From Vicinamibacterales bacterium (GTDB lineage Bacteria; Acidobacteriota; Vicinamibacteria; Vicinamibacterales; UBA8438), in assembly GCA_965262925.1 (NCBI GenBank), contig CBDHGC010000004.1, positions 6,577,869 through 6,641,868 of the forward strand: a DNA stretch of 64,000 nucleotides, in the 5' to 3' direction. Of this stretch, positions 23,039 through 51,749 are shown in pieces. Position numbers and translations under genes: made by a program. Position 1 is the first letter of the stretch. Every line of letters begins with the position of its first letter. The notes under the pieces are model-generated. The model saw only the letters and a list, made by a program, of their open reading frames with translations, was not told the origin of the DNA and made no database searches.

Positions 23039-23279
23039 TTCTGTAAGCGTGCGGTCGGTTCACGACGCGTATTTCATCGGGAGATCAGCCCCCACCGGCC
23101 AGCGGACGAACGGACACCAAGCCGCGCGCGGGCGCGTACCCGAAGAATTCCGCCCAGCTCCCTGTCGGTACCCGCCCTTTGTACGCTGCTCGCCGGGTGT
23201 TGTCAACGCAGACGCCACGCGATAGCATCCGCAATTACCCGTGTCCGGTCCTCCAACCATGCCTGGAAAGGGACATCTC

Positions 23280-28366: not shown

Positions 28367-28538
28367 GGCGTATGATGCCGATATATGATGACCATATTAG
28401 CCGCTGACCGCGGCGTGCGGCAAGCCTCCGGGCGGCGCTCGCGAAGTAGAGGCGCGCCTATAATGTGAGGCCTTCTGCCGGGCGGCTCGCTTCACCGACC
28501 TGGTGCGGCGCGGCCTGCCCGTTGGGTGGAGGTGGCTC

Positions 28539-28973: not shown

Positions 28974-29125
28974 GTTCCGCCGCGGCGCTCCGCGCGGCTC
29001 GGGCGGGGGTGGCGCCAATCACAACGGCGGACCGTTCCGTTCGGACCGGCACCGCCCTGTATGATGAATCCCGTCGAAAGAGAACGCTGGCCACAGCGGC
29101 GCTGACGAACGCGGAGACGAAGGCA

Positions 29126-33576: not shown

Positions 33577-35001
33577 CTACTGCTCGACCACCGGCTCCCG
33601 CGCGCCGAGGGCGCGCAGCAGATCCGCGGTGCTCTCCGAGGGTGCGTTGGCGTTGCCGTACTCGACCAGATAGAGCGGCGTGCGGCCGCGGTTGTCTTCG
33701 GCGTTGACGTCGGCGCCATGGTCGACGAGGAGCTGGATGACCCCGTCCTCCCACATCGCGGCCGCTCCGTGGAGAGCGGTGCTGCCGGCCGGCGTGCTGG
33801 CCTTGACGCCGGCGCCCACCTCGATGAGCAGGGACACTGTCTCCTCGACCCGGTGGTCGGGCGGGCGACGCGCGTCGTTCTCGCCGAGCCCGGAGGCGAC
33901 CATGAGCGGCGTCGTGCCGAAGGCATTGGCCACGAACGGATCGGCCCCGGCGTCGAGCAGCACGCGCATCATCTGCAGGTTGGCATCCCGGGCCGCGAGC
34001 CAGAACGGCGTCGCTCCCTTGTACGGCGCCCGCGAGATGTAGTCGCCGCGCAGAGCCGGCACGCGATCGGCGAACCGGGCGTCGACGTCGGCGCCGGCCG
34101 CGATGAGCGCCGCGGCGAGGTTTGGCCGGTTGGTCTCGACCGCCGCGTGCACCGCGGTGCGGCCACGCCGGTCCGCGGCGTTCACGTCGGCTCCGCGCTC
34201 GATGAGGTAGTGCGCCGTCTCTTCGTGACCGCTGGCGTACGGAATGATCCGCCAGTCGATGCCGGCCAGCGCGTCGGTGCTGCGGCTGGCGACGAGCAGA
34301 GGGGTGCTGCCGTCGATGGCCCGCGCTTCGAGTTCGGCGCCAGCCTCCAGAAGAAGCTGCACGGTCTCGAGGTCGCCGGCCCGCGCCGCGAACATGAGCG
34401 CCGTGAACCGGCCGGTGGTGCGTACGCGCACGCCGCCGCCCGACTCCAGCAGTCGGCGCGCCACGTCGGCATGACCGCCCGCGGCGGCCCACATCAGCGC
34501 GGTCTGGCCCCGCTCGTGCTCGGCGAACCGGGCGTCCGCGCCGCGCTCCAGCAGCCGCGCGACGAGGGTCCCCAGCCCGTGCTGCGCCGCGGTCATCAGC
34601 ACCGTCTCGCCGGTTGGGAGCCGCGTGTCGGGATCGGCGCCGGCATCGATGAGCCGCAGCGCCACGTCGACGTTGGCGTTGTCGAGAGCGATCCAGAGCG
34701 GCGGGATGCCGAGATCGTTGACGGCGTCGACGTCGGCGCCGGCCGCGATCAGCCGGCCGGCAGTCTCTCCGTCGTTCCAGTGCGCGGCCCAGTGCAACGC
34801 GGTGGCGCCGTCCGGCTGCGTCGCGGTGGCGCCGGCGCCGGCGCCGGCGTCGACCAGCGCGCGGACCGCTTCCCAGTCCTGGCGCTCGGCCGCCTCGACG
34901 ACGCGCAGGTCATCGTCGGCGCCCACCGCCAGCGCGGGCACGCCGGAAACCGCGAAAAGGAAGAGGGCGGCCAGGAGCCAGACCCGGTGGTAGCTGCGCA
35001 T
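33577..35001 (-). CDS. Secreted ankyrin-repeat protein (copy 2)
   Basis: Signal peptide, DGATALHWAAH, GQTALMWAAA, GATPFWLAAR. Confidence 0.9.
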   Translation of the reverse strand: MRSYHRVWLLAALFLFAVSGVPALAVGADDDLRVVEAAERQDWEAVRALVDAGAGAGATATQPDGATALHWAAHWNDGETAGRLIAAGADVDAVNDLGIPPLWIALDNANVDVALRLIDAGADPDTRLPTGETVLMTAAQHGLGTLVARLLERGADARFAEHERGQTALMWAAAGGHADVARRLLESGGGVRVRTTGRFTALMFAARAGDLETVQLLLEAGAELEARAIDGSTPLLVASRSTDALAGIDWRIIPYASGHEETAHYLIERGADVNAADRRGRTAVHAAVETNRPNLAAALIAAGADVDARFADRVPALRGDYISRAPYKGATPFWLAARDANLQMMRVLLDAGADPFVANAFGTTPLMVASGLGENDARRPPDHRVEETVSLLIEVGAGVKASTPAGSTALHGAAAMWEDGVIQLLVDHGADVNAEDNRGRTPLYLVEYGNANAPSESTADLLRALGAREPVVEQ

Positions 35002-35058
35002 CAGATCTGTCTCCGTTCCCACGTGCGGACCCCGACGCCCAGGAAAACGATTCGGGTT

Positions 35059-36417
35059 CTATACATCCGACAGCTCGTGCAGCGCCCCGGTGCTGTCGCC
35101 GATCGTCTCCAGATGGACGCCCAGCTTGCCGAGCAGGCTCATGAACAGGTTCGTCACCGGCGGATCGTCGTCGTAGCTGATGTGCCGCCCGCCCTTGAGC
35201 GTGCCGGTGCCGCCGCCCGCCACCACCATCGGCAGCTTGTGATGGTTGTGCACGTTCCCGTTGCTCATCCCGGCGCCATACAGGACCATGGCGTGGTCGA
35301 GCAGCGAGCCGTCGCCGTCCTCGGTCGCGTCGAGGCGTTCGAGGTAGTACGAGAACAGCTCCACGTGATGGGTGTTGACCTTGATCAGCTTCTCGACCTT
35401 CTCCTGGTCGCCGCCGTGGTGCGACAGGGGGTGGTGGGCGTCCGAGACGTCGATCTCCGGATAGGCGCGGTTACTCGTCTCGTGAGCCACCATGAAGGTG
35501 ATGATGCGGGTCAGGTCGGCCTGGTAGGCCAAGACCTGCAGGTCGAACATCAGCTTCGCGTGCTCGCTGAACGCGCCGGGGATGCCGGCCGGCTGTTCCA
35601 TCGCCACCGACAGGTCGGTCAGCCCCTGCTGCTCGGCCATCCGAATGCGGCGCTCGACGTCGCGAATCGCTTCCGTGTACTCGTCGAGCTTGCCGCGGTC
35701 CCGTGCGCCGAGCTTGCTGCGCAGCCGGGCGAGCTTCTCGGCGACGGCGTCGAGAATCGTGCCGTCCTCCTCCATCCGCGCCAGCCGCGCCGCGGCGTCG
35801 GTCGTACCGCTACCGCCGAACAGCCGCTCGAAGACCACCCGCGGATTGTTCTCCATCGGCAACGGAGTGGTCTCCCCCAGCCAGTTGAGGGTGTTGGCGT
35901 AGACGCAACTGTAGCCGGGGTCGCAGGCGCCGAGCGGCTCCTTCGAATCGAGCGACAGCTCCAGCGAGGCGAGCTGGGTCTCGTTCTCCAGCGCCCGCGC
36001 CGCGATCTGGTCCATCGAGATGCCGGCGCGGATGTCGGCGCCGGCGGTCTTCTTCGGATGGACACCGGTCAGGAACGCCCCGGCCGCGCGGGCATGGTCG
36101 CCGGCGCCCTCGCCGGGCAGTGCGTCGCCGTGCTTGTTGGCGAGCCCGCTCACGACGGTCAGTCGATCGCGGTACGGCGCTAGCGACTGCATGACCGGCT
36201 TCATGTCGAAAGCCTTGCCGGTCGCATCGGGCGTCCACTCCTCCATGACGATGCCGTTCGGCACGTAGACCACGCCGAGCCGCTTGACCGGCGCGGCGGC
36301 CGAGACGCGGAGCGGCGTGAACGCCGGCACCATGCCGTCGAGAAGCGGCAGCGCCAGCGTCGCGCCGACACCGCGCAGGAACGTCCGTCGTGGCAAATGC
36401 GTCTTCGTGATGATCAT
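35059..36417 (-). CDS. DUF1552 family Tat-exported protein (copy 2)
   Basis: RRTFLRG, GDHARA, GACDPGYSCVY, HHPLSHH, GNVHNH. Confidence 0.9.
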   Translation of the reverse strand: MIITKTHLPRRTFLRGVGATLALPLLDGMVPAFTPLRVSAAAPVKRLGVVYVPNGIVMEEWTPDATGKAFDMKPVMQSLAPYRDRLTVVSGLANKHGDALPGEGAGDHARAAGAFLTGVHPKKTAGADIRAGISMDQIAARALENETQLASLELSLDSKEPLGACDPGYSCVYANTLNWLGETTPLPMENNPRVVFERLFGGSGTTDAAARLARMEEDGTILDAVAEKLARLRSKLGARDRGKLDEYTEAIRDVERRIRMAEQQGLTDLSVAMEQPAGIPGAFSEHAKLMFDLQVLAYQADLTRIITFMVAHETSNRAYPEIDVSDAHHPLSHHGGDQEKVEKLIKVNTHHVELFSYYLERLDATEDGDGSLLDHAMVLYGAGMSNGNVHNHHKLPMVVAGGGTGTLKGGRHISYDDDPPVTNLFMSLLGKLGVHLETIGDSTGALHELSDV

Positions 36418-38912
36418 TGCTCTCGCGCCTTCCTCATCTGAAACGGCGTGCTCTCGACGATACCGAGAATCAGCGACGACCAGCGGTAGTCGTCCGCCTC
36501 GGCCTGCCGCACGATGCGCCGAATCCACGGGTGGTCGTAGTACTCCACGCCTCGGCCGAGCGCGTAGGTCAGCAGCTTCTCGGTCACGGTGCCGACGAAG
36601 TCCTCGCGGTTGGCGAGCAGCATCTCGCGCACGCTGGCCGGCCCGTTCAGCTCGCGTCCGCTGGGCAGCGTGCCGGAGGTCTCCTCCACGGGAAGCTCCC
36701 GGTAGCCGCCGATGGCGTCGAAGCTCTCGAGCGCGAAGCCGAGCGGATCCATGCGGACGTGGCAGCTCGCGCAGACCGGGTCGGTCCGGTGCCGCTCCAT
36801 CCGCTCGCGGACCGAGCGCGGCCGGCTCTCGGGATTCGACGGGTCGGCCACCGAGTCCGAATCCTCCAGCCCCGGAACGTCGGCCGGCGGCGGCGGCGGC
36901 GGCGCGCCGAGCAGATTCTCCAGCACCCACACGCCCCGCTTCACCGGCGAGGTGCGGTTGGCGTAGGAGGTCGCGGTCAGGACGCTGCCCTGGCCCAGGA
37001 TGCCGCGGCGCCGTTCGTCCGGCAGCGTCACACGCCGGAAGTGGTTCCCCGCGACGTTCGGAACCCCGTAGTGCTTCGCGAGCCGCTCGTTGACGAAGGT
37101 GTAGTCGGAGGTCAGGACCTCGATGACGCTGCGGTCTTCCTTGATCTGGCTCTCGAACCAGAGCTCGGTCTCGCGGGTGAACGCCTCGCGCAGATTCCCG
37201 TCGAACTCCGGGAACGCGACCGGATCCGGCTTGACCGACCGCATGTTCCGCAGGAACAGCCACTGGCCGGCGAAGTTGTCCACCAGGGCACTCGCCTTCG
37301 GATCGACCAGCATCCGCCGCACCTCGGCTCTGAGCACGCCTTCGTCGCGCAACGCCCCGCGCGCCGCCACGTCCAGCAGCTCGTCGTCCGGAATGCTGCT
37401 CCAGAGGAAGAACGACAAGCGCGACGCCAGCTCCAGGTCGGAGAGGCGGTACGGCGCACCCGGCGCCGCATCCGGCGGGTCGTGCTCGATGCGGAACAGG
37501 AACTCCGGGTCGACCAGGATGGCGCGCAGTGCGAACTCGATGCCCGACTCGAAGCCGCCTCTGGCGTGTCCCACGTCATAGAACGCCATGAGGGCGGCGA
37601 GGTCGTCGTCGGTGACCGGCCGACGGAACGCGCGGCGCGCGAGGCCGCCGAGGATCTCCTGCGCGCACGCCGGCTCGGCCGCCGACCCGTCCGGCAGGCA
37701 GGTGAAGATCCGCTCGCGGCTGGGCGTGGCGGCGTCCGCCGCCGGCGCATTCGCGAGGAACGGCCCCTCGATCTCGACGATCCAGACCGCCATCGGGGCG
37801 TCCCGATCACCCGCGTAGTGGTAGGTCTCGGCCGCGCTCACCGGCTCGCGGACCCCTTCCGGCAACGCGCTCCGGCGGAGGAACGACAGCGCCACCTCGC
37901 GCATGCCCGCCTGCACCGGCATCCGGAAGCGGAGATCGGCGTCCGCGTTCCGCTCGTAGGGGGTCAGGTTGAAGACCGCGTTCCAGGCCTCGCGCTGTCC
38001 GTCCGCGCCGATCTCGAAGCGCGCGACGCGGGCGCGGTCCAGACGCACCTCCAGCTCGTTGCGGCGCTGCAGCCCCTTGATCGCATCGCCGTGCGTCCGC
38101 TCCAGGGTGACCTTGAACTCGTACTCCCCGTCGACCGGAAAGTAGTGCCGGGTCGCGAACCCGCCGCGGCTGCCGAACGGGTGCAGCTCGCTCATCCGCG
38201 TGTGCTGCATCAGCACCGGCGACGTGGTGTAGACCGCCGTGGTGGATCGGATCGACGGATCCCCGATTGCCGTCTCGGCGATCTTGCCCGCCGCAAGCAT
38301 GTAGCGCTCGAGGAGCGAAGGCGACAGCGACAGGACATCGGCGATGTTGTCGAAGCCGTAGCTCAGATCGTCGGCCGGCAGCAGCTCGCGGCCGTCGATC
38401 TCCAGGGCCAGCAGATCCCGGATCGCGTTGGTGTACTCGGTCCGGTTGAGCCGATGCACGGTCTCGTTGCCGGGGTTCGGATCGGCGGCGGCCGCACGGT
38501 CGAGCTCGGTCTCGATCCAGTCCACGAACGCCACGTAGGTCGCGGCGTCGGGACGCGGGCGCCGCGGCGGCGGCATCTCGCGGGCGCGCAGCTTGCGGAT
38601 CACCTTCTCCCACACTTCCGCGCCTTGGCCCACGTGGGCCATGTCGACCGACTCGAGGGTCAGTCCGGCAGTCTGCAGGCGGTCACTGTGGCAGGTGGTG
38701 CAGTAGCGGTCCAGGACGGCCCGATACTCTTCGCTCTCGGCGGCCGCTGCCGCGGTGGACTCCGTGCCGGCCGCGTTGGACGGCGCAGCGACGGCCTCGG
38801 ACGCCTGACCGGCCGCGCGAACCGGGGTCGGCGCAAAGAGCAGAGCCGCCAGAGCGATGACCGCCGCCGATGCGTACAAACGTCGGAAAATCGCCAACAC
38901 TGGACGCCTCAC
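36414..38912 (-). CDS. DUF1592-family di-heme cytochrome c protein (copy 2)
   Basis: CTTCH, RLNRTEY, LASRLSFFLWSS, CASCH. Confidence 0.9.
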   Translation of the reverse strand: MRRPVLAIFRRLYASAAVIALAALLFAPTPVRAAGQASEAVAAPSNAAGTESTAAAAAESEEYRAVLDRYCTTCHSDRLQTAGLTLESVDMAHVGQGAEVWEKVIRKLRAREMPPPRRPRPDAATYVAFVDWIETELDRAAAADPNPGNETVHRLNRTEYTNAIRDLLALEIDGRELLPADDLSYGFDNIADVLSLSPSLLERYMLAAGKIAETAIGDPSIRSTTAVYTTSPVLMQHTRMSELHPFGSRGGFATRHYFPVDGEYEFKVTLERTHGDAIKGLQRRNELEVRLDRARVARFEIGADGQREAWNAVFNLTPYERNADADLRFRMPVQAGMREVALSFLRRSALPEGVREPVSAAETYHYAGDRDAPMAVWIVEIEGPFLANAPAADAATPSRERIFTCLPDGSAAEPACAQEILGGLARRAFRRPVTDDDLAALMAFYDVGHARGGFESGIEFALRAILVDPEFLFRIEHDPPDAAPGAPYRLSDLELASRLSFFLWSSIPDDELLDVAARGALRDEGVLRAEVRRMLVDPKASALVDNFAGQWLFLRNMRSVKPDPVAFPEFDGNLREAFTRETELWFESQIKEDRSVIEVLTSDYTFVNERLAKHYGVPNVAGNHFRRVTLPDERRRGILGQGSVLTATSYANRTSPVKRGVWVLENLLGAPPPPPPADVPGLEDSDSVADPSNPESRPRSVRERMERHRTDPVCASCHVRMDPLGFALESFDAIGGYRELPVEETSGTLPSGRELNGPASVREMLLANREDFVGTVTEKLLTYALGRGVEYYDHPWIRRIVRQAEADDYRWSSLILGIVESTPFQMRKAREQ

Positions 38913-38952
38913 TCTCAGGATGGCGGCGGGATCAACCCCAGGCTATCCGTGC

Positions 38953-39040: not shown

Positions 39041-40030
39041 TCACGGGCGGGCCCGAGCCTCGGCCTGCGCCCCGGCGAGGATGTTGTACAGGCCGTAATT
39101 GCCCTCGTGGCACGCATACTCGAACAGCCTGCCGTCGGACCTCGTCATCGTCATCTCGACGCTCCAGGTACGGGTGAACGCGGTCAGATCGTCGACCGTG
39201 AAACGATAGAGCAGGGTGTCGGCATCGAGCAGGCTGAAACGCTCGACCAGATGGAGATCCGATCCAAGGGCTTCGAGGAGCTCCATGTTGGGCGCCGGGT
39301 GTGCGGTGCCGAGAGCCTTGAAGTTCGCGGTCTCGACGACGAGCGTGTCGTCTTCCCAGCGGCCTCGCGAGTCGCCCCTCCACTGGCGTATCTCGCTGGA
39401 CAGGCGCGGCTGCTCGCCCAGCGGGACGAGCCGCACGTCGTTCACCATCTCGTTGAGAATCGCAACGTGTCCCGGCGTCTGGAACAACTGAACGAAGTTG
39501 TTGTACGCGCCGGGCAGCATCGGCGGCCCGGAATTGAAGCCGAGGATGCACCGTTCGTCCACGTCGCGGTCCTCCGGACCGGCGTTCCGGCTGCGCGCCT
39601 CCTCGCGGGCGGCCATCCGCGCCCTGCCCTCGGGCATGTAGGCAGGCAGGCGCCCGTCCGGCGGGTCGACGATGAGCGATGTGCGGCGGGTCCCGGCGAC
39701 CGTCGTGCCGTCCGCGAACCAGAACCGGTTGTAGCTGCCGGGGTCGCCCGGGCGCGGCGCAGTGTCCACCCGCGCGGCGGCCCGTGCTTCGAGCGCCGAC
39801 ACGTCCTCGTCGGTCAGGAACTCCCTGCCCGCCAGATCGGCGGGTCGTTGAAGCGGCGTCAGGGAGCTGAAGTCCCACACGCCCTGCAGGGCGGACCGAC
39901 CGTCCGGCGTACGCGGCACGGACGCCTCGGTGGACGATACCGGCTGCGCGGCGACGAATGCCGGCGCCAGCGATCCGGACGCGATCACGACGACGAAAAA
40001 CCGCACCACAACGGTAAGCCGAAAGTTCAT
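39041..40030 (-). CDS. Secreted conserved hypothetical protein (PRTPDG...EYACHEGN type)
   Basis: Signal peptide, PRTPDG..LQGVW, GDSRGRWEDDTLVVET, LHLVERF, FEYACHEGNY. Confidence 0.85.
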   Translation of the reverse strand: MNFRLTVVVRFFVVVIASGSLAPAFVAAQPVSSTEASVPRTPDGRSALQGVWDFSSLTPLQRPADLAGREFLTDEDVSALEARAAARVDTAPRPGDPGSYNRFWFADGTTVAGTRRTSLIVDPPDGRLPAYMPEGRARMAAREEARSRNAGPEDRDVDERCILGFNSGPPMLPGAYNNFVQLFQTPGHVAILNEMVNDVRLVPLGEQPRLSSEIRQWRGDSRGRWEDDTLVVETANFKALGTAHPAPNMELLEALGSDLHLVERFSLLDADTLLYRFTVDDLTAFTRTWSVEMTMTRSDGRLFEYACHEGNYGLYNILAGAQAEARARP

Positions 40031-40237
40031 CTGGACATCCCTTTCGCCGCCACGATCCGTGGCTGCAACGAGAGCGTGAGTTTCGCGTGTGCCCGGACTC
40101 TCGTCCCTGCCGGTGCCGCGATCCGCTGCTTCGGAGAACAGCCTAACAGGAAACCGCCGCCCGCGGAGAACACCCCCCGCCGACCGTAAGGTCTCGCGGT
40201 TGAGCGGCCGGACGGCGGCGGACTATAATCGGCCGAA

Positions 40238-41080
40238 ATGCGCCTGTTCACGGTGGTTGCCGTCGGCGTGCTGGCCGCCCTGATCGCGACGCCTTTCGTC
40301 GCCGGCGCGCAGTCGCGCGACGCCCCGATCCCGCACGACGCGGGCCAGAGCGTGAATCCGTCGTTCGAGGGCTGGTATCCCAACGAGGACGGCACGTTCT
40401 CCCTGTCGTTCGGCTACTTCAACCGCAACTACGAAGCCGCGCTCGATATTCCCGTCGGCCCGGACAACCACTTCACGCCGGGCGCCGAGGACCGCGGGCA
40501 GCCGACGTACCTGCTGCCGCGGCGACACACCGGCGTGTTCACGGTGGTCGTCCCCGCCGACTTCGGCGACCGGACTCTGACTTGGTCGCTGACCGCCGCC
40601 GGCGAGACGTTCGCCGTTCCCGGCCACCTCCGTCCCGAGTGGCGAATCGACGCCCTGGAGGAGGTGACCAGCGGCAACCGTCCGCCGGAGCTCTCTTTCG
40701 ACACCGCAGAGGGTGACGCGCGCACCGGCCAGGGTCCCGGCGGTGTGCGGCAGTCCCTGGTCGCCGCGGCCGGCGAAGCGGTGACGGTCACCATCCGCGT
40801 TCGCGACGACCGGGTCCGCAAGCAGAGCCTGCAGGGCCGCCCGACCCGCATGGGCCTCGTCTGGAGCCAGTACCGCGGCCCCGGCTCTATCGAGATCGCC
40901 GACCCGACGCCCGCGATCGGGGAGGATGGCCTGACCGCGACGACCGTCACGTTCAGCGAGCCGGGCGACTACGTCCTGCGTGCGCTGGCCTGGGACGACT
41001 CGGGCGGACCGGGACCGATCATGGCCGGCGGCTTCCAGTGCTGCTGGACCAACGCGTACGTCGACGTTCGTGTAGAGTGA
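40238..41080 (+). CDS. Secreted hypothetical protein (EGW..FGYxNRN type, two Ig-like domains), copy A
   Basis: Signal peptide, PSFEGWYPNEDGTFSLSFGYFNRN, GQPT, YRGPG, FSEPGDYVLRA. Confidence 0.85.
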   Translation: MRLFTVVAVGVLAALIATPFVAGAQSRDAPIPHDAGQSVNPSFEGWYPNEDGTFSLSFGYFNRNYEAALDIPVGPDNHFTPGAEDRGQPTYLLPRRHTGVFTVVVPADFGDRTLTWSLTAAGETFAVPGHLRPEWRIDALEEVTSGNRPPELSFDTAEGDARTGQGPGGVRQSLVAAAGEAVTVTIRVRDDRVRKQSLQGRPTRMGLVWSQYRGPGSIEIADPTPAIGEDGLTATTVTFSEPGDYVLRALAWDDSGGPGPIMAGGFQCCWTNAYVDVRVE

Positions 41081-41133
41081 CGTTCCGGGCCGCTCCGGCG
41101 GCCATTCGATGCGTGACAAGCGGAGAGGCAGTC

Positions 41134-42471
41134 ATGAAGACCTACAGGCTCGTGCTCGCGGCGGTTGCGTTGTTGATGCTGGCCGGCGGCGCCCTGCCGG
41201 CGACGGCCCAGACGACGGATACGGACGACGTGACGTTCGCCCGTGACGTCGCACCGATTCTCCAGCGGAGCTGTCAGGCTTGCCATCGCAGCGGCAGCAT
41301 GGCCCCCATGTCGCTGGTGAGCTACCAGGAAGTGCGGCCCTGGGCCCGCGCGATCCGCGAGAAGGTCTCCACGCGCACGATGCCGCCGTGGCATCTCGAC
41401 AAGACGGTCGGCATCCGGGACTTCGCCAACGACATCTCCCTGAGCGACGCCGAGATCGACGCGGTGGTGCGCTGGGTCGACGCCGGTGCGCCGCTCGGCA
41501 ACCCGGCCGACATGCCGCCGCCCGTCGAGTGGCCGGCGGACGACATCTGGCGCCTCGCGGACAAGTACGAGGAGCTCGGCGAGCCGGACCTGGTGGTCCG
41601 CTCGACGCCGTGGACGCAGTCGGCCGAGGGTCAGGACCAGTGGTATCAGCCGGTCGTCGATACCGGGCTGACCGAGGATCGCTGGGTCAAGGCACTCGAG
41701 GTGCGGCCGTCGCTGCCGGGCCGCCCCATCGTGCATCACGCCGTCACCTACCTGATGCAGCAGGAGAGCCCAGAGGACTTCGAGGCGGCGGTCGACGTCC
41801 CGGGCACCGGCTCCTACTTCACCGAGTTCGCGGTCGGCAAGATCGGCGACGTCTTCCGCGAGAACACCGGCAAGCTGCTGAAGGCCGACTCGCAGATCCG
41901 TTTCGATCTCCACTACCACTCGGTCGGAGAGGAGATCAGCGATTCGACCGAGCTCGGCATCTGGTTCTACCCCAAGGGCTACGTCCCGAAGTATCGGGTC
42001 TACGCGCAGGCGATGGGCGTGCGCCAGGCGATGCAGACGCTCGACATCCCGCCCGGCCAGGTGACCGAGCACGAGGCGTTCGTCCCGCTACGTTTCCCGG
42101 CGCGGCTCGAGAACTTCCAGCCGCACATGCACATCCGCGGCAAGGCCCTGGCGATGGAGGCGATCTATCCGAACGGGCGGACGGAGATGCTGAGCTACGT
42201 CGATCAGTTCGATTTCAACTGGCACGTCAACTACGTCTACGCCGACCACTCGGCCCCGGTCCTGCCCGCCGGCACGGTCGTCAAGATCACCGCGTGGCAC
42301 GACAACTCGCCGGGCAACCGCGCGAATCCGGACCCGACGCAGTGGGTCGGCTGGGGCCAGCGCAGCTACGACGACATGTACCACGCGCACGTGAACGTGG
42401 TGTACCTCACCGACGAGGACTACGAGCAGATCGTCGCCGAGCGGGCCGCGGCGACCGACAACGACGAGTAG
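41134..42471 (+). CDS. Cytochrome c-fused copper type II monooxygenase (PHM/DBM-like), copy A
   Basis: Signal peptide, CQACH plus MPPW, IVHHA, DLHYH, PHMH, FDFNW, DDM. Confidence 0.8.
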   Translation: MKTYRLVLAAVALLMLAGGALPATAQTTDTDDVTFARDVAPILQRSCQACHRSGSMAPMSLVSYQEVRPWARAIREKVSTRTMPPWHLDKTVGIRDFANDISLSDAEIDAVVRWVDAGAPLGNPADMPPPVEWPADDIWRLADKYEELGEPDLVVRSTPWTQSAEGQDQWYQPVVDTGLTEDRWVKALEVRPSLPGRPIVHHAVTYLMQQESPEDFEAAVDVPGTGSYFTEFAVGKIGDVFRENTGKLLKADSQIRFDLHYHSVGEEISDSTELGIWFYPKGYVPKYRVYAQAMGVRQAMQTLDIPPGQVTEHEAFVPLRFPARLENFQPHMHIRGKALAMEAIYPNGRTEMLSYVDQFDFNWHVNYVYADHSAPVLPAGTVVKITAWHDNSPGNRANPDPTQWVGWGQRSYDDMYHAHVNVVYLTDEDYEQIVAERAAATDNDE

Positions 42472-42575
42472 CCGGGCACTACCGGGGGGACCCCGTTCAT
42501 CGTGGGCGGTGGCCCCCCATCCGCGTCACGGCCGGGACGGCGGCGCGCGACATGGTGACGAGGGAGCCTGCCGAC

Positions 42576-43721
42576 ATGCCCATGACCGTCATCCGCGTGC
42601 GTCCCCTGCTCGCGGCGTGCGCGCTGGTGCTCTTCGCCGCTTGCCAACCGCTCGCGGAGATGGCGCTCGCAGCATCGGCGGAAAGCGCCGCCCAGCCGTC
42701 TTCCGCGCCGACATTCCAGGTCGACCCGTTCTGGCCGCAGGAGCTTCCGGGCGACTGGCTGCTCGGCAACGTCGTCGGCGTGGCGACCGACTCGAGCGAC
42801 AACGTCTGGATCATCCACCGCCCGAACAGCCAGCGCGGGGCGGACAACACGCCGCCGGTCATCGCCTTCGACCCCACCGGCGCCGTCGTCCACGCCTGGG
42901 GCGGCCCCGGCGAAGGGTACGACTGGGGGACCCAGACGCACGGGATTCACGTCGACCACGAGGGCAACGTCTGGGTCGGATTCGGCGGCGGACTCCCCTA
43001 CGACCTGACGACCCGCGCCACCACCGACAACGCCCACGTCCTGAAGTTCACCCCGGAGGGCGAGTTCCTGCTGCAGATCGGCGACTTCGGGCGGGGCACG
43101 GAGGGCAGCAACAGCACCGAGTTCCTCGGCCAGCCGACCGATGTCTTCGTGGATCCCGCAGCCGGCGACGTCTACATCAGCGACGGGTACACGAACCGGC
43201 GGGCGATCGTCTTCGACGCGAACACCGGCGAGTACCGGCGGCACTGGAGCGCCTACGGCAACCCGCCGGACGACGCGGCGCAGCCCCCCTTCACGCGCGC
43301 CGGGCCGCTGCCGCAGCAGTTCAACACGCCGCACTGCGTCGGGCGCGCCGCGGACGGCCGGGTCTACGTCTGCGACCGCGGGAACCAGCGGCTCCAGGTA
43401 TTCGAACCCGACGGGACTTTCGTGACCGAGGCGCTCATCGCCGCCCGGCTGCGAAACGGAACCGTGGGCGGCACGCCGTGGGATCTGTCCTTCTCACGCG
43501 ATCCGGAACAGAGGTTCGTCTTCGTCGCCGACGGCAGCAACCATGCAGTCCACACGCTCTCGCGCGAGACGCTCGACGTGGTCGCCACCTTCGGCCGCCG
43601 CGGGCGCTGGGCCGGGCAGTTCGAGTCGCCCCACAGCCTCGCCGTCGATTCCCAGGGCAACCTCTTCGTCGGCGAGACGCTCGACGGCCGCCGCGTGCAG
43701 AAGTTCGTGCCGGCCAACTGA
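42576..43721 (+). CDS. PAL-like (peptidyl-alpha-hydroxyglycine lyase family) NHL beta-propeller lipoprotein
   Basis: Lipobox FAAC; THGI, SDGYTNRR, PHCV, CDRGNQRLQVF, PHSLAVD. Confidence 0.8.
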   Translation: MPMTVIRVRPLLAACALVLFAACQPLAEMALAASAESAAQPSSAPTFQVDPFWPQELPGDWLLGNVVGVATDSSDNVWIIHRPNSQRGADNTPPVIAFDPTGAVVHAWGGPGEGYDWGTQTHGIHVDHEGNVWVGFGGGLPYDLTTRATTDNAHVLKFTPEGEFLLQIGDFGRGTEGSNSTEFLGQPTDVFVDPAAGDVYISDGYTNRRAIVFDANTGEYRRHWSAYGNPPDDAAQPPFTRAGPLPQQFNTPHCVGRAADGRVYVCDRGNQRLQVFEPDGTFVTEALIAARLRNGTVGGTPWDLSFSRDPEQRFVFVADGSNHAVHTLSRETLDVVATFGRRGRWAGQFESPHSLAVDSQGNLFVGETLDGRRVQKFVPAN

Positions 43722-43755: not shown

Positions 43756-44445
43756 TCAGCCGGACTTGCGCCCCACCACCACCGTCATTCCAACCTCGCG
43801 CCAGACGCACTCGGCGTCGAAACCGGCTGCCGCAACGGCCGCCAGCTCGTCTTCCAGCGGGAAGTAGGTGTCTTCCTCGGCCCACTCCTCGAAGTGCCCG
43901 AACGCGCGCTTCTCGTCGATCCCCTGCACCACCATGTGATCCGCCCAGGCGCGCCAGGTCGCCTCGCTCGCGTCCGGATCCGCCGGCATCGTGGCGTCGG
44001 CGTTGACGAAGACGCCGCCGGGTTCGAGCGCGCTGTGGATCCGCCGGTAGAGCGCCCGCTTGGCGTCCAGAGTCCGTACGTGGTGCAGAGCCAGCGACGC
44101 CGCGGCGCAGTTGCAGCGCGGCAACGCCGCGAGGAACGACTGTTCCGTAAAGCGCACACGCCCGCCGAACCGCGCGAGACGCGTCCGGGCCTGCGCGAGC
44201 ATCTCCCGGTCCACGTCGATCAGCTCTACGGTCCCGCTGTCGCACAACTGCAGAATGGCCTCGGCGAGCGCGCCGGTCCCTCCCCCGAGGTCGAGCACCA
44301 GGCCGGGAGCGACGGCCGCCAACTCGCGGGCCGCCACACCGAGCATCGCCTCGTAGCCGGGAATGAACTGGCGGATCGCGGTGTCGTAGGCGTCGATAGG
44401 GACGCGCAGGTGACGGCGTACGGAGTGAGCGCTGTCGCTATTCAT
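43756..44445 (-). CDS. Class I SAM-dependent methyltransferase
   Basis: VLDLGGGTG, ASLALHH, LEPGGVFVNAD. Confidence 0.9.
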   Translation of the reverse strand: MNSDSAHSVRRHLRVPIDAYDTAIRQFIPGYEAMLGVAARELAAVAPGLVLDLGGGTGALAEAILQLCDSGTVELIDVDREMLAQARTRLARFGGRVRFTEQSFLAALPRCNCAAASLALHHVRTLDAKRALYRRIHSALEPGGVFVNADATMPADPDASEATWRAWADHMVVQGIDEKRAFGHFEEWAEEDTYFPLEDELAAVAAAGFDAECVWREVGMTVVVGRKSG

Positions 44446-44510
44446 GACCGATCGGCGCTCGGCAGGTCGTATCTACGGGGTGCATTGCCGGCGGGACGCC
44501 GAACTCGCCG

Positions 44511-45125
44511 CTACGGCGCGAGCCCAAAGATCTCGGCGACCGGAAGACGGAACCCGGGAAACAGCGGCTCGCCCTCCAGCACGTCGGATTCCCCGAGTCG
44601 CCGTGGGATGCCATCCGGTTCATGCATCGTGACCGTCACTCGCTTGGGATCCACTACCCAGACGAGGCGCGTGCCCGCAGCGAGCCACGACGCCACCTTG
44701 TCCGCTACTTCGCGGCGAGTGTCACCCGGTGAAGTGACCTCTACCGCCAGATCCGGCGCACCCTCCCAGAAGGTCACCGGGAGACCGGATGCCGAAATCC
44801 GTGCCCGCCGGACGAAGGCCACGTCGGGGGCAAGCACGGTATCGGGATCCCTCTCCAAGACGAACCCGGTCTCCGCACCGCAAACGACGCCCAGCCGGTG
44901 CGCCTTTACGTGCTGACCCAACGGGACCGCCACGTTCATGATGACGGCGCCGTGCCGGAATCCCGCCGCCGCCATACGCTGCAACTCTCCTCTGACCAGG
45001 GCATACCGGCAGTTGTCGTCCGGCAGGCGGAGCAACTCCTCCGCGGTCATGGCCCTGCCGACCCGTGGCGCCGGAAGGCGTTGTCCGGGAACCGGCAGCG
45101 AAGGCGCCGACGCACCAGGGTTCAT
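44511..45125 (-). CDS. Uma2 family PD-(D/E)XK protein
   Basis: AETGFVL, APDVAFV, APDLAVEVTSP, GTRLVWVVDP, LFPGF; start may be 45050. Confidence 0.9.
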   Translation of the reverse strand: MNPGASAPSLPVPGQRLPAPRVGRAMTAEELLRLPDDNCRYALVRGELQRMAAAGFRHGAVIMNVAVPLGQHVKAHRLGVVCGAETGFVLERDPDTVLAPDVAFVRRARISASGLPVTFWEGAPDLAVEVTSPGDTRREVADKVASWLAAGTRLVWVVDPKRVTVTMHEPDGIPRRLGESDVLEGEPLFPGFRLPVAEIFGLAP

Positions 45126-45161
45126 GGGATACCGCTGACTGTCAAGCGGTGATCGGGGGCC

Positions 45162-46058
45162 TCAAGGGATGACGGTGACGGTGACGTCCGCGGTCGTGGC
45201 GAGACCGCCGTCGTGGGCGATGCCGCGCAGCACGTAGGTGCCCGGCTCCGCGAACGTCGCTTCGGTAAGCCAGCGACCGTCCTCGGGCGGTTCCGGCGTC
45301 TTCCAGCCGGGCGACCAGGGAGACCCGCCGGTGTCGCGCGTGTCCTCCCAGACCTTGGTCTGGGGCGGATCGAACGTGACGTCCCCGGCACCGCGGTAGA
45401 CGAACCACGAGAAACGGTGCCCGGTCGCCGTGTCGGTCGTGATGCGGCCGGGAAGGCGCGGACTCGAAGCCGCCATCGAACGGGCGCGCGGCTTGCCGTC
45501 GTCGGTGGAGACGGCGATCAGGGTCACCGGCTCGCCGACCCGCGTCGTGCGCTCGCCGGCCCCTTCGATCTCCAGCGTGGGCGCCTGGTTGTCAGCCAGC
45601 TCGGGCGTGGTCGCGGCGGCGCCTCCCGCCCCGTAGTTCGCCTGGATGACGAGATCGTCGATGAAGTAGTCACGCCGCAAGCTGGCGTACGCGCGCTCGG
45701 TCTGCCCGTTGGTCGTCAGGGTCCAGATCAGTTCCTTGTCGCCAAAGTCGGCCGGGACCCGGATGCGGAACACGAAGCGGTTCCGGCGCGGGTAGAAATG
45801 GGTGGGCTGTCCCTTGTCCGGCCCACCCGGCTCGATACTGTTGTCGGGGCCGACGGGAACGTCGATCACTTCTTCCCAGTTGCGGTTCATGTAACCGAAC
45901 ACGAGGTCGAAGGAACCGTCGTCGTTGCGCTCCCAGCCTTCGTAGGCGGGCGCGATGCTCTCTCCCGTCGCGTACGACCGCTGGGCGAAGCCTGCCGACG
46001 GCGCCGCGAGCAGCGACGCCGCCAGCACCACGATCCCGAAACGCACGGTACGGTTCAT
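45162..46058 (-). CDS. Secreted hypothetical protein (EGW..FGYxNRN type), copy B
   Basis: Paralog of 40238..41080: PAYEGWERNDDGSFDLVFGYMNRN, GQPT, FAEPGTYVLR. Confidence 0.85.
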   Translation of the reverse strand: MNRTVRFGIVVLAASLLAAPSAGFAQRSYATGESIAPAYEGWERNDDGSFDLVFGYMNRNWEEVIDVPVGPDNSIEPGGPDKGQPTHFYPRRNRFVFRIRVPADFGDKELIWTLTTNGQTERAYASLRRDYFIDDLVIQANYGAGGAAATTPELADNQAPTLEIEGAGERTTRVGEPVTLIAVSTDDGKPRARSMAASSPRLPGRITTDTATGHRFSWFVYRGAGDVTFDPPQTKVWEDTRDTGGSPWSPGWKTPEPPEDGRWLTEATFAEPGTYVLRGIAHDGGLATTADVTVTVIP

Positions 46059-46068
46059 CGGACGCACC

Positions 46069-47478
46069 TCAGTTGTCGCCGCCGGCGTCGGCTTCGGCCG
46101 CCTCGTCATCAACCCCGCAGAGCAGACATCCGATTTCGGATCCGCTGCCAGCCTCGATCGCCGCCTCACGCGCGGCGACTGCCTGAGCGAACTCCTCGTC
46201 GTCCAGGTAGATGGCCTGCATCAGGTTGATGAACATGTTGTCGACCGAGCGGTGGCCGGAGCCGGACCAGTTTCGCGGATCGACCACGTTCGGGTTGGTC
46301 GGCGAGTTGTTGAAGTACCCGGTGAGGTGCAGGATGGTCCCCTTCGGCAGCAGCGGGGCGGCGTCGTCGGCGTACTTGTAGACGCGCACCCAGTTGTGGT
46401 CGTAGCCGGCGCAGTTGAGGGTCTGCACGGACGTGCCCCAGACCGCCTCCAGACACATCCGGACGCCCGGCGCGTGCATGTGCGGCTCGAAGACGCTGAT
46501 CTTCGAGTTCTCCGGCAGCGTGAAGTAGGCGTCGGCGCGCTGGTCGGCCTCCATCGGGCGGATGTCGAGGTCCGGACCGTTGCCGAAGAAGAGCAACTGC
46601 ATCTCCTTCTCGGGCTCGTACCCCTTGGGATGGAACTTGAAGGCGACGTCGATGTGGGCGCGCGTATCGGTGCCGTTCGCGTGCAGATGCGTGGTCGGGA
46701 AGAGCAGGGTCGAGCCCGCTTCGAGCAGGCGTCCGGCGTTCTCGTCGAAGACATCGGCGTTGCGGCCGACCTCGTGCACCGGCCAGTTCAGCGGCGCGCC
46801 CTGCTCCTCACCCTCCTCGAACTCCACGATGCTGTACAGCGCCGAATGGTGGACGATGAAGAGGCCGCCGACGGTGTCGGAGCGGACACCGCGCTGCAGG
46901 TCGTTGCGCTCCTTGTACTCGATGGCCGCCACGTAGCGATCTTCGGTCAGTCCCGTCTCCGATGTTCCCAGGCTGCCCCACCAGTCGGGCGCGTCGCCTT
47001 CGATCTCGAACGCCGGCGACGAGACGATCAGGTCGGGCGCGCCGATCTCCCAGTCGTCCACGTCGATGAACGGCGGCGGCTCCGGCATGTCGGCCGGATC
47101 TCCCTGCGGCGCGCCGTTGTCGGCCCAGCGCGCGATCGTGGCGACCTCGGCGTCGCTCAGCGACCAGTCGTCCTTGAACTGCTGGATGCCGATGTTCTTC
47201 TCGATGTACCACGGCGGCATGACGCCCGGCTTGTCCCGGAGCCCGGTCCGGTACTTGATGGCGCGCGCCCAGGGCCGCACCTCTTCGTACGAGATGAGCG
47301 ACATCGGCGCGAGCGAGTTCGGCCGGTGGCACTTCTGGCAGCTCCGCTGCAGGATGGGCGCGACGTCCCGACTGAACGTCGGGTCCTCGGGAGCGGCCCC
47401 GGCGGAAGCGGGAGCCGGCAGCGAGAGCGCGATGACCGCGGCAACGCCGCAGAGACCGACCAGCTTCGAAGTCGTCAT
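46069..47478 (-). CDS. Cytochrome c-fused copper type II monooxygenase (PHM/DBM-like), copy B
   Basis: CQKCH plus MPPW, IVHHS, THLH, PHMH, YDHNW, DNM. Confidence 0.8.
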   Translation of the reverse strand: MTTSKLVGLCGVAAVIALSLPAPASAGAAPEDPTFSRDVAPILQRSCQKCHRPNSLAPMSLISYEEVRPWARAIKYRTGLRDKPGVMPPWYIEKNIGIQQFKDDWSLSDAEVATIARWADNGAPQGDPADMPEPPPFIDVDDWEIGAPDLIVSSPAFEIEGDAPDWWGSLGTSETGLTEDRYVAAIEYKERNDLQRGVRSDTVGGLFIVHHSALYSIVEFEEGEEQGAPLNWPVHEVGRNADVFDENAGRLLEAGSTLLFPTTHLHANGTDTRAHIDVAFKFHPKGYEPEKEMQLLFFGNGPDLDIRPMEADQRADAYFTLPENSKISVFEPHMHAPGVRMCLEAVWGTSVQTLNCAGYDHNWVRVYKYADDAAPLLPKGTILHLTGYFNNSPTNPNVVDPRNWSGSGHRSVDNMFINLMQAIYLDDEEFAQAVAAREAAIEAGSGSEIGCLLCGVDDEAAEADAGGDN

Positions 47479-47663
47479 GGTACGAATCCTCACACGTTTT
47501 CGGGGACTGAAGACCATTGGGAATTGTATCGCACGCGGAAAGTCCCGCGACAGCCGGCGGGGCGGCGGCGCGCTGGTCGTCGGGTTCCGGGGCGCAGCCG
47601 GAACGCGGCGCGCGGCCCCGGCTGGAACTTGCGCCCGCGGTGCGTTAGCATGCCGGACACATC

Positions 47664-49337
47664 ATGAACATGCGGCTCCACGCGCTGGCGCCGGCAATCT
47701 GCGTTGTGGCGACAGCGGCGGCGGGCTCGGTATCGTCCGTGGGCGGCGCGAGCCTCGCCCCCCTGCCGCCGGGCGGGCTGCCGGTCTCGACCGGCTTTTC
47801 GGCGCATCAAGCTGCAGTCGGCAACGCGGCCAATCAGGGTCTCCCCGACGCGGCGCAACGCCGCGACATCGAGACGGTCCGGGTGCTGATCGATGCGGGG
47901 GTCGACGTCGATGCGCCGCAGGCCGATGGAGCGACGGCACTGGCGTGGGCGGTCCACTGGGACGATCTCGCCACGGCCGACCTGCTGCTCGGCGCCGGCG
48001 CCGATGTCGACGCCGCAAACGACCTGGGCGTGACGCCGCTGATGCTCGCCAGTCTGAACGGCAGCGTCCCGATGGTCGATCTTCTCCTGAGAGCCGGAGC
48101 GGATCCGAACGCAGCCCGGCCCGCGGGCGGGACCGCCCTCATGATGGCCGCACGCTCGGGCGATGCAACCGTGCTGCGGCGGCTGATCGCTGCAGGAGCC
48201 GACCTCGACGCGGCGACGAGCAGCGGCCATACGGCCCTGATGTGGGCCGTCGCGGAGCGGCACACACGCGCCGTGACGCTCCTGGCGGAGGTCGGAGCGG
48301 ACGTGCAGGCGCGCACCGCCGTGTATACCCCACGGGCGCGGACGACCGTCCGTGAGGCGAAGGTGCTGAGCCGGTTCGAGGCGATCAATCCCGCCGGGCT
48401 GCCCCGCGACGGAGATCGGGACCCGCCGCGGCCCGAGGGCGGGTTCACGCCGCTGCTCTACGCGATTCTGGCGGGTGACGCCTCGAACGTGCGCGTGCTG
48501 CTGTCCGCCGGCGCGAACGTCGACGACGCCGGACCCGACGGCGTCACCGGGTTGATGCTGGCGTTGATAAAGCGCCACGAAGAGACCGCCCTCCTGCTCC
48601 TCGACGCGGGGGCGGATCCGAGTGCGGCCGAAGCCGGGTTCGCGGCGCTGCATCTGGCGAGCGCCACCGGCAGCCTGGCCGTGGCCGAGGCGCTGCTGGC
48701 CCGCGGCGCGGATCCCGATGTCCGCCTCCAGCGTCCCCAACGCCTGACGAACGCCTTCGAGATCGGCGTCTTCACGTCTCCGGGCTCGGGCCGGCTGACC
48801 CAGATCGGCTCTACGCCGTTCATGGTCGCCGCCAAGTCCGCGGACGCCCGGATGATGCGCCTCCTCGCCGAGGCCGGCGCCGACCCGCACCTGACCACCG
48901 CCGACGGGACGACCGCCCTGATGCTCGCGGCCGGGCTCGGCAAGCGCGCCGCGACCGACATCACCTACTACGACTGGACCGAGGAGAAGGCGGTCGCTGC
49001 CCTCGCCGCCGGGCTGGAGCTCGGCCTCGACATCAACGCCGCCAACGAGCATGGCGAGACCGCTCTGCACGCGGCCGCCTACCACAACGCGAACCGGGTC
49101 ATCGAGTTCCTCGTCGACAACGGCGCGGCGATCGACGCGCCGAACACCGCCGAGCAGACGCCACTGCGGATCGCGGAGGGACATCTGATCTGCTGCACCA
49201 CCTTCGTGCGGCACGCCGAGGCGGCGACGCGGCTGCAGGAATTGGGGGCCGACCCCGACGCCGGCATCCAATTGACGTTCGGACTGACGAACTACGGCGA
49301 TCAGGATCAGGCCCCGCCCGATGCGCCGCGGCCCTGA
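47664..49337 (+). CDS. Secreted ankyrin-repeat protein (copy 3)
   Basis: DGATALAWAVH, GHTALMWAV, GETALHAAAY repeats. Confidence 0.9.
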   Translation: MNMRLHALAPAICVVATAAAGSVSSVGGASLAPLPPGGLPVSTGFSAHQAAVGNAANQGLPDAAQRRDIETVRVLIDAGVDVDAPQADGATALAWAVHWDDLATADLLLGAGADVDAANDLGVTPLMLASLNGSVPMVDLLLRAGADPNAARPAGGTALMMAARSGDATVLRRLIAAGADLDAATSSGHTALMWAVAERHTRAVTLLAEVGADVQARTAVYTPRARTTVREAKVLSRFEAINPAGLPRDGDRDPPRPEGGFTPLLYAILAGDASNVRVLLSAGANVDDAGPDGVTGLMLALIKRHEETALLLLDAGADPSAAEAGFAALHLASATGSLAVAEALLARGADPDVRLQRPQRLTNAFEIGVFTSPGSGRLTQIGSTPFMVAAKSADARMMRLLAEAGADPHLTTADGTTALMLAAGLGKRAATDITYYDWTEEKAVAALAAGLELGLDINAANEHGETALHAAAYHNANRVIEFLVDNGAAIDAPNTAEQTPLRIAEGHLICCTTFVRHAEAATRLQELGADPDAGIQLTFGLTNYGDQDQAPPDAPRP

Positions 49338-49353
49338 GAGCCTGAACGGGACG

Positions 49354-51732: not shown

Positions 51733-51749
51733 CGGCCGAAGAGGCACTA

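Follow-up and report, generated by a model that had tools for sequence, protein, structure and literature searches.

We analysed a window of 64,000 nucleotides (the whole stretch of DNA considered here; contig CBDHGC010000004.1 of assembly GCA_965262925.1) from a bacterium of the order Vicinamibacterales. In this window, a gene for an exported, heme-c-fused protein resembling the copper monooxygenases PHM and DBH is followed by a gene for an exported protein resembling the lyase PAL. The source genome comprises 11.3 Mb on four contigs, its closest public relatives are metagenome-assembled genomes (MAGs) labelled Vicinamibacterales, phylum Acidobacteriota, and close relatives of the locus are present in RNA libraries labelled sponge metagenome. 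A first-pass annotation made from the sequence had described the two genes as adjacent, co-oriented and coding for exported proteins, and had read them as a dedicated module for peptide alpha-amidation. Both genes, and every motif named in either protein, were recovered at their positions (Table 1). The locus as a whole consists of two convergent copies of a two-gene module, each composed of a gene for an immunoglobulin-like (Ig-like) protein and a monooxygenase gene, with three other genes between them.

Table 1 Features of the locus, with positions counted from the first nucleotide of the window
Feature	Position	Strand	Basis or remark
Promoter-like site TTGAGC-18-TATAAT, 10 of 12	40200-40229	+	Consensus match; directly 5' of the Ig-like partner gene
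Ig-like partner, 280 amino acids (aa), exported	40238-41080	+	Open reading frame (ORF), alignment, AF2
Heme-c-fused PHM/DBH-like monooxygenase, predicted dicopper, 445 aa, exported	41134-42471	+	ORF, conservation, AF2, fold and profile matches
CQACH heme-c attachment site (C47, C50, H51)	41272-41286	+	Motif, conservation
MPPW with presumed axial Met83	41380-41391	+	Motif, conservation
IVHHA: H201 and H202, CuH ligand pair, aligned with PHM H107/H108	41728-41742	+	Profile alignment, conservation
DLHYH: third CuH ligand H260, aligned with PHM H172	41905-41919	+	Profile alignment, conservation
PHMH: H331 and H333, CuM ligands, aligned with PHM H242/H244	42121-42132	+	Profile alignment, conservation
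DDM: M415, presumed CuM Met (PHM M314)	42370-42378	+	Motif, conservation
PAL-like six-bladed NHL propeller, 381 aa, exported	42576-43721	+	ORF; alternative ATG at 42552
S-adenosylmethionine (SAM)-dependent methyltransferase	43756-44445	-	Pfam Methyltransf_25 E 1.7e-13; between the two convergent modules
Uma2-family putative endonuclease	44511-45125	-	Pfam Uma2 E 5.4e-32; same intervening block
Second Ig-like partner paralog	45162-46058	-	Likely start 46058 (MNRTV...)
Second heme-c-fused PHM/DBH-like paralog, 482 aa as ORF, CQKCH	46069-47517	-	40% identical to the first monooxygenase

The monooxygenase begins with a signal peptide, followed by a mono-heme c domain at residues ~30-145, the double jelly-roll core at ~150-426 and finally a helix at the C-terminus. 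Its motifs start at residues 47 (CQACH), 83 (MPPW), 199 (IVHHA), 258 (DLHYH), 330 (PHMH) and 413 (DDM). The same genome holds 31 near-full-length monooxygenase loci, each with exactly one CxxCH. Few alignment columns are near-fixed across these paralogs, and the heme and copper-ligand positions are among them: C47, C50, H51 and M83 are kept in 31 of 31, the CuH positions H201 and H202 in 29 and H260 in 30, and the CuM positions H331 in 29, H333 in 30 and M415 in 29. In an alignment of 49 diverse relatives, C47, C50, H51, M83, H201, H260, H331 and H333 are invariant, while H202 and M415 are kept at 90% or more (M415 in 47 of the 49 rows). The protein thus carries the CxxCH motif and a distal methionine, as expected of class I c-type cytochromes. 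The Pfam model Cytochrome_CBB3 matched it with E 3.6e-4 and 21.3 bits, under the cut-off of 27 bits.

Pfam and NCBIfam assigned no family to the monooxygenase or to its Ig-like partner, and a single-sequence search of the monooxygenase against the PDB sequences returned chance matches only (E above 1). A family profile was needed. With it, DBH (E 1e-8) and PHM (E 1.4e-6) were matched in the PDB with the HH, H and HxH histidines aligned: H201/H202 correspond to PHM H107/H108, H260 to H172, and H331/H333 to H242/H244. The adjacent His-His pair and the third histidine of a CuH site are therefore present according to profile alignment and conservation. M415 lies inside the structurally aligned range, and its match to PHM M314 is presumed from motif and conservation. 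The AF2 model, built on the alignment of the 49 relatives, has a pLDDT of 90.6. Foldseek searches with this model gave human DBH (E 1.1e-11) and rat PHM (E 3.6e-11), and VIA gave a Z of 22.1 for DBH (300 residues aligned, root-mean-square deviation 3.6) and of 16.5-21.0 for PHM, with model residues 151-429 superimposed on PHM 62-327. The next family by VIA was PNGase F with a Z of 8.9. The double jelly-roll core common to PHM, DBH and TBM is thus found in the model by both methods. In PHM, the two copper sites lie ~11 Å apart and face each other across a solvent cleft, as described in the available text of a recent study (PMC12164859). From the fold, the conservation of the ligands and the heme motif we conclude that the first gene encodes an exported heme-c-fused protein of the PHM/DBH type, with a predicted dicopper core behind an N-terminal mono-heme c domain. 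The first-pass annotation had arrived at this assignment by eye and had named superposition of a predicted structure on PHM as a way to check it; structure prediction, Foldseek, VIA, profile alignment and paralog conservation agree with it.

The family is large. Among 8000 candidates scored, 6108 proteins belong to it at E ≤ 0.001, and 1872 clusters (50% identity) are found at E ≤ 1e-30; databases already label some of the relatives Cu2_monoox_C. Several longer relatives (P0127, P0175, P0199, P0207, P0210, P0224, P0232, P0234, P0244, P0247 and P0256) carry an AhpC/TSA-Redoxin domain before the heme-c and PHM-like core. P0256 additionally has a BlaR1-type M56 peptidase domain, and EF-hands occur in P0140 and P0234; in all, a few of the longer relatives have CBM48-like, EF-hand or TPR domains.

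The residues that would line the substrate pocket differ from those of PHM. In PHM, Arg240 holds the C-terminal carboxylate of the substrate, assisted by Tyr318 and Asn316, according to the available text of the same study (PMC12164859). In the profile alignment, the Arg240 position is occupied by Gln329, two residues before H331, and DBH also has Gln there. This column contains Q, E, Y, W and other residues in the family, with Arg in none of the 31 paralogs and none of the 49 relatives. The positions of Asn316 and Tyr318, two and four residues behind the methionine, are taken by His417 and His419, and both columns are variable. The set of Arg240, Tyr318 and Asn316 that confers specificity for peptidylglycine is thus not found in the monooxygenase, and the presence of Gln, and never Arg, at the anchoring position speaks against substrates with a terminal Gly being bound in the manner of PHM. 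Judged from these positions, a Gly-terminated peptide bound in this way is therefore an unlikely substrate. The variability of the pocket suggests instead that members of the family may act on many different substrates.

The constant companion of the monooxygenase is the Ig-like protein. It is composed of an N-terminal beta-sandwich and a C-terminal PKD/Ig-like domain (AF2 pLDDT 84.4), and its N-terminal domain carries the conserved motif FEGW..DG..GY.NRN..PVG..N..PG..D.GQP. Foldseek returned only generic Ig, PKD or pilin-chaperone-like matches (E ~1e-5 to 1e-3). The best VIA match had a Z of 10.8 and the others at most 8.3, mostly over residues 144-280, so that the N-terminal domain was scarcely covered. 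A role as copper chaperone of the CopC or PCuAC type was considered and dropped: the partner alignment contains no invariant His, Cys or Met, which makes such a role unlikely.

The linkage of the two genes was followed in 80 loci, defined as the regions around monooxygenase orthologs with 53-98% identity in related genomes. The Ig-like gene adjoins the monooxygenase gene in 79 of them, and the 80th locus ends on that side; the Ig-adjacent loci include Gammaproteobacteria, Bryobacteraceae and Blastocatellia. Within the source genome, 19 of the 31 paralogs have an Ig-like gene at most 300 bp away, and none of the 18 Ig-like genes is farther than 2 kb from a monooxygenase gene, where 0.28 would be expected within that distance. 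Monooxygenase and partner are naturally fused in the clusters P0130 and P0131, which are independent of each other (hhalign probability 100%, E 1e-52 and 2e-53). Prediction of the complex of partner and monooxygenase gave a median score of 0.72 against 0.05 for the best of three controls. Of 80 solved complexes 58 attained this mark, as did 2 of 110 mismatched pairs, counts that hold only roughly here because our own alignments were used. The runs share at least 50% of their contacts, the partner has a pLDDT of at least 80, and the predicted interface places the N-terminal domain of the partner on residues 160-172, 301-314 and 399-412 of the CuM domain. The model thus supports that the Ig-like protein binds the monooxygenase, and our best reading is that the conserved functional unit is the monooxygenase together with an Ig-like subunit. 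Seven paralogs of the genome (C3:380386, 818540 and 2516751; C4:849408, 4221896, 4244844 and 4247175, where C3 and C4 denote contigs) have no Ig-like neighbour. These long paralogs carry a C-terminal extension of ~200-270 residues, in which, as in the remainder of the seven proteins, hmmsearch with the partner profile found no match at E ≤ 1.

The protein encoded behind the monooxygenase, a possible lipoprotein with Cys23 as lipidation site, is matched by the Pfam family NHL (E 1.3e-14). Its motifs start at residues 121 (THG), 202 (SDGY), 252 (PHC), 267 (DRGN) and 352 (PHS). The catalytic core of rat PAL (3fvz) was found with E 7.4e-15 in one stretch (residues 57-368 against 16-310) and with E 4.8e-21 in the profile search, so that homology to a PAL-type NHL beta-propeller extends over the full length. 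By counting along the alignment of the N-terminal half to the full-length PAM chain, H122 corresponds to PAL H585, Y205 to Y654 and R82 to R533. H253 was assigned to PAL H690 by motif and spacing only. For R268, the DRGN motif and a distance of 15 residues from H253, as between H210 and R225 of ExiPAL, were the grounds for equating it with R706. H353 was compared with H786 by inspection, the segment PHS being matched to the PHD segment 785-787 in blade 6 of PAL. Presumably, H122, H253 and H353 are the zinc ligands, Y205 the base, and R268 and R82 the arginine positions. Lyase activity has been measured for the bacterial PAL ExiPAL, whose residues H95, Y178, H210, R225, H309 and D310 are named in its report (PMC10900485). 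The spacing of the presumed zinc, tyrosine and arginine positions is 83, 48, 15 and 85 in the window protein and 83, 32, 15 and 84 in ExiPAL.

That this protein is a non-catalytic beta-propeller for binding or scaffolding, resembling PAL through the shared NHL fold only, seems to us very improbable. It would be in keeping with the whole-sequence searches, in which the NHL domains of TRIM71 and Thin outscore PAL via repeated blade matches and PAL ranks sixth, with the position of the calcium ligand Asp787, which is not Asp but Ser354 (family consensus PHS), and with the weak match to the NCBIfam family ScyF (81.7 bits against a cut-off of 350 bits). However, PAL is the only solved protein matched full-length in one stretch and the top match for the N-terminal half (E 2.9e-11), H122, Y205, H253, R268, H353 and R82 do not vary among 18 family members, and their spacing mirrors that of the active ExiPAL. 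We therefore regard the second gene product as a propeller of the PAL type with an apparently intact catalytic set, in agreement with the first-pass annotation.

The genome contains 16 PAL-like copies, and many of the longer relatives in this multi-copy family are tandem propellers. Four copies of one PAL-like gene gave identical statistics in tblastn (C4 658586-659719, 3550457-3551590, 3992469-3993602 and 8112746-8113879), and a fifth, near-identical copy is found at C4 1210853-1211986. This near-identity suggests that the gene is carried by a repeated or mobile segment.

The linkage between the PAL-like gene and the monooxygenase is of another kind. A PAL-like ortholog with at least 76% identity follows the monooxygenase in 11 of the 80 loci, a weaker NHL match is present in 3, and 66 have no NHL match within 6 kb. 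In a tree of 79 monooxygenases, from which one short row was omitted, the 11 NHL-positive rows, including the window, form two groups that both fall within one clade of 22 rows (support 100). The other 11 rows of this clade are without the PAL-like gene, so at least two changes are needed on the tree. In five of these rows (L019-L022 and L070), the second module is convergent and no NHL match lies between the modules; the gap between them is below 200 bp in L019, L021, L022 and L070 and ~1.2 kb in L020. Owing to this patchy distribution and to the modules without an NHL gene between them, the PAL-like gene looks like a variable insert, situated beside the methyltransferase and Uma2 genes.

Within the source genome, 2 of the 16 PAL-like genes have a monooxygenase gene at most 2 kb away, compared with 0.27 expected (P ~0.02). 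Control families at the same distance gave 7 of 101 for the exported 329-residue family p329 (1.72 expected) and 3 of 46 for the ankyrin proteins (0.77 expected), as well as 0 of 49 for DUF1552, 1 of 50 for DUF1592 and 1 of 90 matches for the pyrroloquinoline quinone (PQQ) dehydrogenase. The enrichment of PAL-like genes is similar to that of unrelated expanded families of exported proteins. The association is real but weak, about as strong as shared islands of exported enzymes would lead one to expect. In an order-level sample of 41 genomes (PAL-like at E ≤ 1e-30, monooxygenase at E ≤ 1e-40), PAL-like genes occur in 26 and monooxygenase genes in 14. Twelve genomes have both, 14 only PAL-like genes and 2 only monooxygenase genes; one of these 2 genomes is 74% complete. 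We also inspected 60 PAL-centred regions, picked as the better, near-full-length matches from 22 genomes: 24 come from genomes without any monooxygenase match, and 2 show an Ig-like match only, at the edge of the region. In one genome, G010, 4 of 16 PAL-like genes lie within 5 kb of a monooxygenase gene among the matches listed, a count obtained by hand reading and not used as a test. The copper-monooxygenase domains PF01082 and PF03712 were not found among the 120 listed of 152 longer PAL-like relatives, which is weak evidence, and the 22 longer monooxygenase relatives scanned contained no NHL domain. Altogether, PHM-like and PAL-like proteins were not found consistently fused or co-encoded. 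The PAL-like gene is not an obligate or general partner of the monooxygenase, and it is best read as a lineage-specific neighbour that was placed behind the monooxygenase only in a young sub-lineage.

A scan for promoter-like sites found 2 where 0.5 were expected; these are consensus matches only, with no evidence of function. The site at 40200-40229 is a possible start of a transcript of the Ig-like, monooxygenase and PAL-like genes. Three studies contributed RNA libraries whose contigs cover the genes with 90-99% identity, and the junction of the Ig-like and monooxygenase genes is spanned by X16 (40961-41273) and X17 (41035-41409). Such contigs show no strand, ends, level or single transcript, and DNA may be present in the libraries. 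In some runs, parts of the stretch lack cover, for example 43882-45148 in X15 and X19, to which no meaning is attached here.

The modules are embedded in an island of exported redox proteins between 20.5 and 64 kb of the window. The island includes three trios of an ankyrin, a DUF1592 (heme c) and a DUF1552 protein, a PQQ dehydrogenase, further NHL proteins and an ankyrin-cytochrome c fusion. In each trio (20588-24899, 33580-38942 and 47664-53102), the ankyrin-repeat protein is exported, the DUF1592/PSCyt protein has a heme-c site, and the third member is the DUF1552 (HXXSHH) protein. Genome-wide, there are ~46 ankyrin, ~50 DUF1592 and ~49 DUF1552 loci of these families. At 61594-63669 on the minus strand, ankyrin repeats precede a cytochrome c domain at the C-terminus of the same protein (Pfam Cytochrome_CBB3 1.6e-13, Cytochrom_C 1.6e-11). 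The PQQ dehydrogenase at 28469-31081 has ~90 tblastn matches across the 11.3 Mb genome. Abundant ankyrin proteins are consistent with the lifestyle of a sponge symbiont. Next to the first module, at 39041-40030 on the minus strand, lies a member of the p329 family, an exported protein of 329 aa with ~101 loci in the genome to which neither Pfam nor NCBIfam assigned a family. Members of p329 are nearer to monooxygenase genes than expected by chance and also stand beside PAL-like genes in other genomes. Two loci from other genomes, L088 (3222-12740) and L139 (4890-11099), share a HupE/UreJ_2 membrane protein, a PAL-like NHL protein, a heme-c PHM-like gene and a PQQ dehydrogenase.

Taking these results together, we consider it probable that the monooxygenase is a periplasmic, heme-fed, non-coupled dicopper hydroxylase that works with an Ig-like subunit, and that the PAL-like lyase is a lineage-specific and possibly co-transcribed addition. 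Electrons would come from the covalently attached c-type heme domain in place of ascorbate, a substitution that the first-pass annotation had already proposed and that we judge reasonable. They might pass from periplasmic carriers over the heme to CuH (H201, H202, H260) and further to CuM (H331, H333, M415), where O2 would be activated and a C-H bond of the substrate hydroxylated. The Ig-like protein encoded upstream is predicted to dock on the CuM domain and may work with the enzyme, while the PAL-like protein could process a carbinolamide product of the monooxygenase.

Several observations weigh against this interpretation, and some of them concern the assignment as a hydroxylase. PF01082 and PF03712 do not match the window monooxygenase even at E ≤ 10, and as few as 3 of the 22 longer relatives scanned (P0234, P0190 and P0162) reach the cut-off of PF03712 (Cu2_monoox_C). 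In addition, 12 of these 22 carry an N-terminal AhpC/TSA-Redoxin domain, which could indicate thiol or peroxide chemistry rather than O2-dependent hydroxylation. Such fusions would suit a PHM-like protein that is a periplasmic redox protein, engaged in electron transfer, oxidase activity or peroxide/thiol chemistry, with the Ig-like protein as a scaffold. The setting of the gene among heme-c-fused exported proteins (DUF1592, DUF1552, PQQ dehydrogenase, ankyrin-cytochrome c) and the fact that no substrate-anchoring residue of PHM is conserved point in the same direction. We nevertheless hold a mere redox function to be distinctly unlikely, because the full CuH (HH and H) and presumed CuM (HxH and M) sets are kept across hundreds of divergent clusters, the match to the DBH/PHM fold far exceeds that to any other family, and the variable pockets of the 31 paralogs are easier to reconcile with diversified substrates than with a single role in electron transfer.

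The other opposing observations concern the PAL-like gene as a late addition. The Ig-like, monooxygenase and PAL-like genes all run in one direction, separated by 53 and 104 bp, and a consensus scan found no terminator-like site between the three. The junction of the monooxygenase and PAL-like genes is bridged by RNA-library contigs of two studies, X17 (42400-42827) and X19 (42412-42820), a weak hint at their co-transcription. Among the 60 PAL-centred regions, 5 have a monooxygenase gene within 5 kb, compared with ~2 by a rough hand estimate. The adjacency also recurs for other paralogs: five consecutive genes line up as PAL-like, monooxygenase, Ig-like, hydrolase and NHL in L088, from a Bryobacteraceae MAG, and three as monooxygenase, Ig-like and PAL-like in L093, L139, from a Vicinamibacterales genome, has a convergent PAL-like/monooxygenase pair, and a tight pair of other paralogs lies in the same genome at C4:7077269/7079441.

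These observations would fit a dedicated periplasmic two-step pathway, in effect a prokaryotic PAM, in which a Gly-terminated peptide or an N-acylglycine is alpha-hydroxylated with electrons from the heme and then cleaved to an amide and glyoxylate. Both catalytic residue sets are apparently intact, 12 of the 14 sampled genomes with a monooxygenase also have PAL-like genes, and bacterial PAL homologs with genuine lyase activity are known (PMC10900485). Even so, we think such a pathway unlikely. Only 11 of the 80 loci have the ortholog next to the monooxygenase gene, all of them in one young clade, half of which is without the gene, 14 of the 26 genomes with PAL-like genes show no monooxygenase match, and the proximity enrichment equals that of unrelated expanded families. 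No fused PHM-PAL form occurs in the relatives scanned, although this is weak evidence, and the Arg240 position is Gln as in DBH, with the Tyr318 and Asn316 positions not conserved. A Gly-extended precursor was not seen nearby in the first-pass annotation, and no search for one was made in the present analysis. The module for amidation proposed in that annotation is therefore supported only in part: the constant partner is the Ig-like protein, which it did not mention, the linkage of the two families across genomes, whose absence it had named as refuting, is weak, and the carboxylate anchor for Gly-terminated substrates is replaced by Gln329.

It is likewise doubtful that the Ig-like protein, the heme-c copper monooxygenase and the PAL-like zinc lyase form one periplasmic operon in a lineage of sponge symbionts. 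Such an operon would catalyze an ascorbate-independent oxidative cleavage next to an amide nitrogen, by hydroxylation and subsequent dealkylation by the lyase, and would represent the first equivalent of PAM chemistry in a prokaryote. If this were true, the 31 paralogs and ~1900 clusters would make up a large and as yet unexplored class of heme-dicopper C-H hydroxylases of bacteria, with diverse substrates.

The preferred reading, a heme-fed hydroxylase with an Ig-like subunit, has consequences of its own. How electrons are delivered to, and pass across, the two distant copper sites is still debated according to the accessible text of a recent study (PMC12164859), and a heme-wired dicopper core with an Ig-like subunit would offer a soluble, ascorbate-free system for studying this question. 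The family would also direct attention to periplasmic C-H oxidations so far unexplored in Acidobacteriota, Gammaproteobacteria and sponge symbionts. The authors of the ExiPAL study, in the part of their report that is accessible, call the natural function of bacterial PAL homologs unclear (PMC10900485), and the PAL-like neighbour is a testable lead to this role. In those parts of the literature that are available, PHM/DBH-type enzymes are regarded as eukaryotic. Our literature search, which is incomplete for subscription journals and supplements, returned no account of bacterial heme-fused PHM-like enzymes or of a PHM and PAL operon, and no fused bacterial PHM-PAL form was found among the 22 longer monooxygenase relatives and the 120 listed longer PAL-like relatives.

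Compared with the eukaryotic non-coupled binuclear copper monooxygenases PHM and DBH, the window monooxygenase has the same double jelly-roll and the ligand patterns HH and H as well as HxH and, presumably, M with similar spacing. However, it is only ~12-15% identical to them and reaches no Pfam threshold. It is bacterial and periplasmic and has an N-terminal c-type heme domain instead of relying on ascorbate, whereas DBH has a DOMON domain. Further differences are the separate, predicted Ig-like subunit, the massive paralogy with 31 copies in one genome, and the Gln in place of PHM Arg240, which is shared with DBH. With PAL (3fvz) and ExiPAL, the PAL-like protein has in common the six-bladed NHL propeller and, in an ExiPAL-like spacing, the five presumed catalytic and zinc positions. 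In contrast to PAL, it is stand-alone, exported, possibly a lipoprotein and present in 16 copies in the genome. It has Ser354 where PAL has D787 and ExiPAL D310, and it is 16 residues longer than ExiPAL between the tyrosine and the second histidine.

In the bifunctional PAM of animals, green algae and haptophytes, PHM and PAL are fused or co-encoded, and homologs of both halves stand side by side on one strand in the window. Unlike in PAM, the genes are unfused, their adjacency is not conserved, an Ig-like protein is present as a third component and heme c is the presumed electron donor. A further counterpart of the monooxygenase is a database architecture of bacterial multidomain proteins composed of AhpC/TSA, cytochrome c and Cu2_monoox_C, which are direct relatives (E ≤ 1e-59) with the same heme-c and PHM-like core. 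The window protein differs from them in that it lacks the thioredoxin-fold domain and has a separate Ig-like partner instead.

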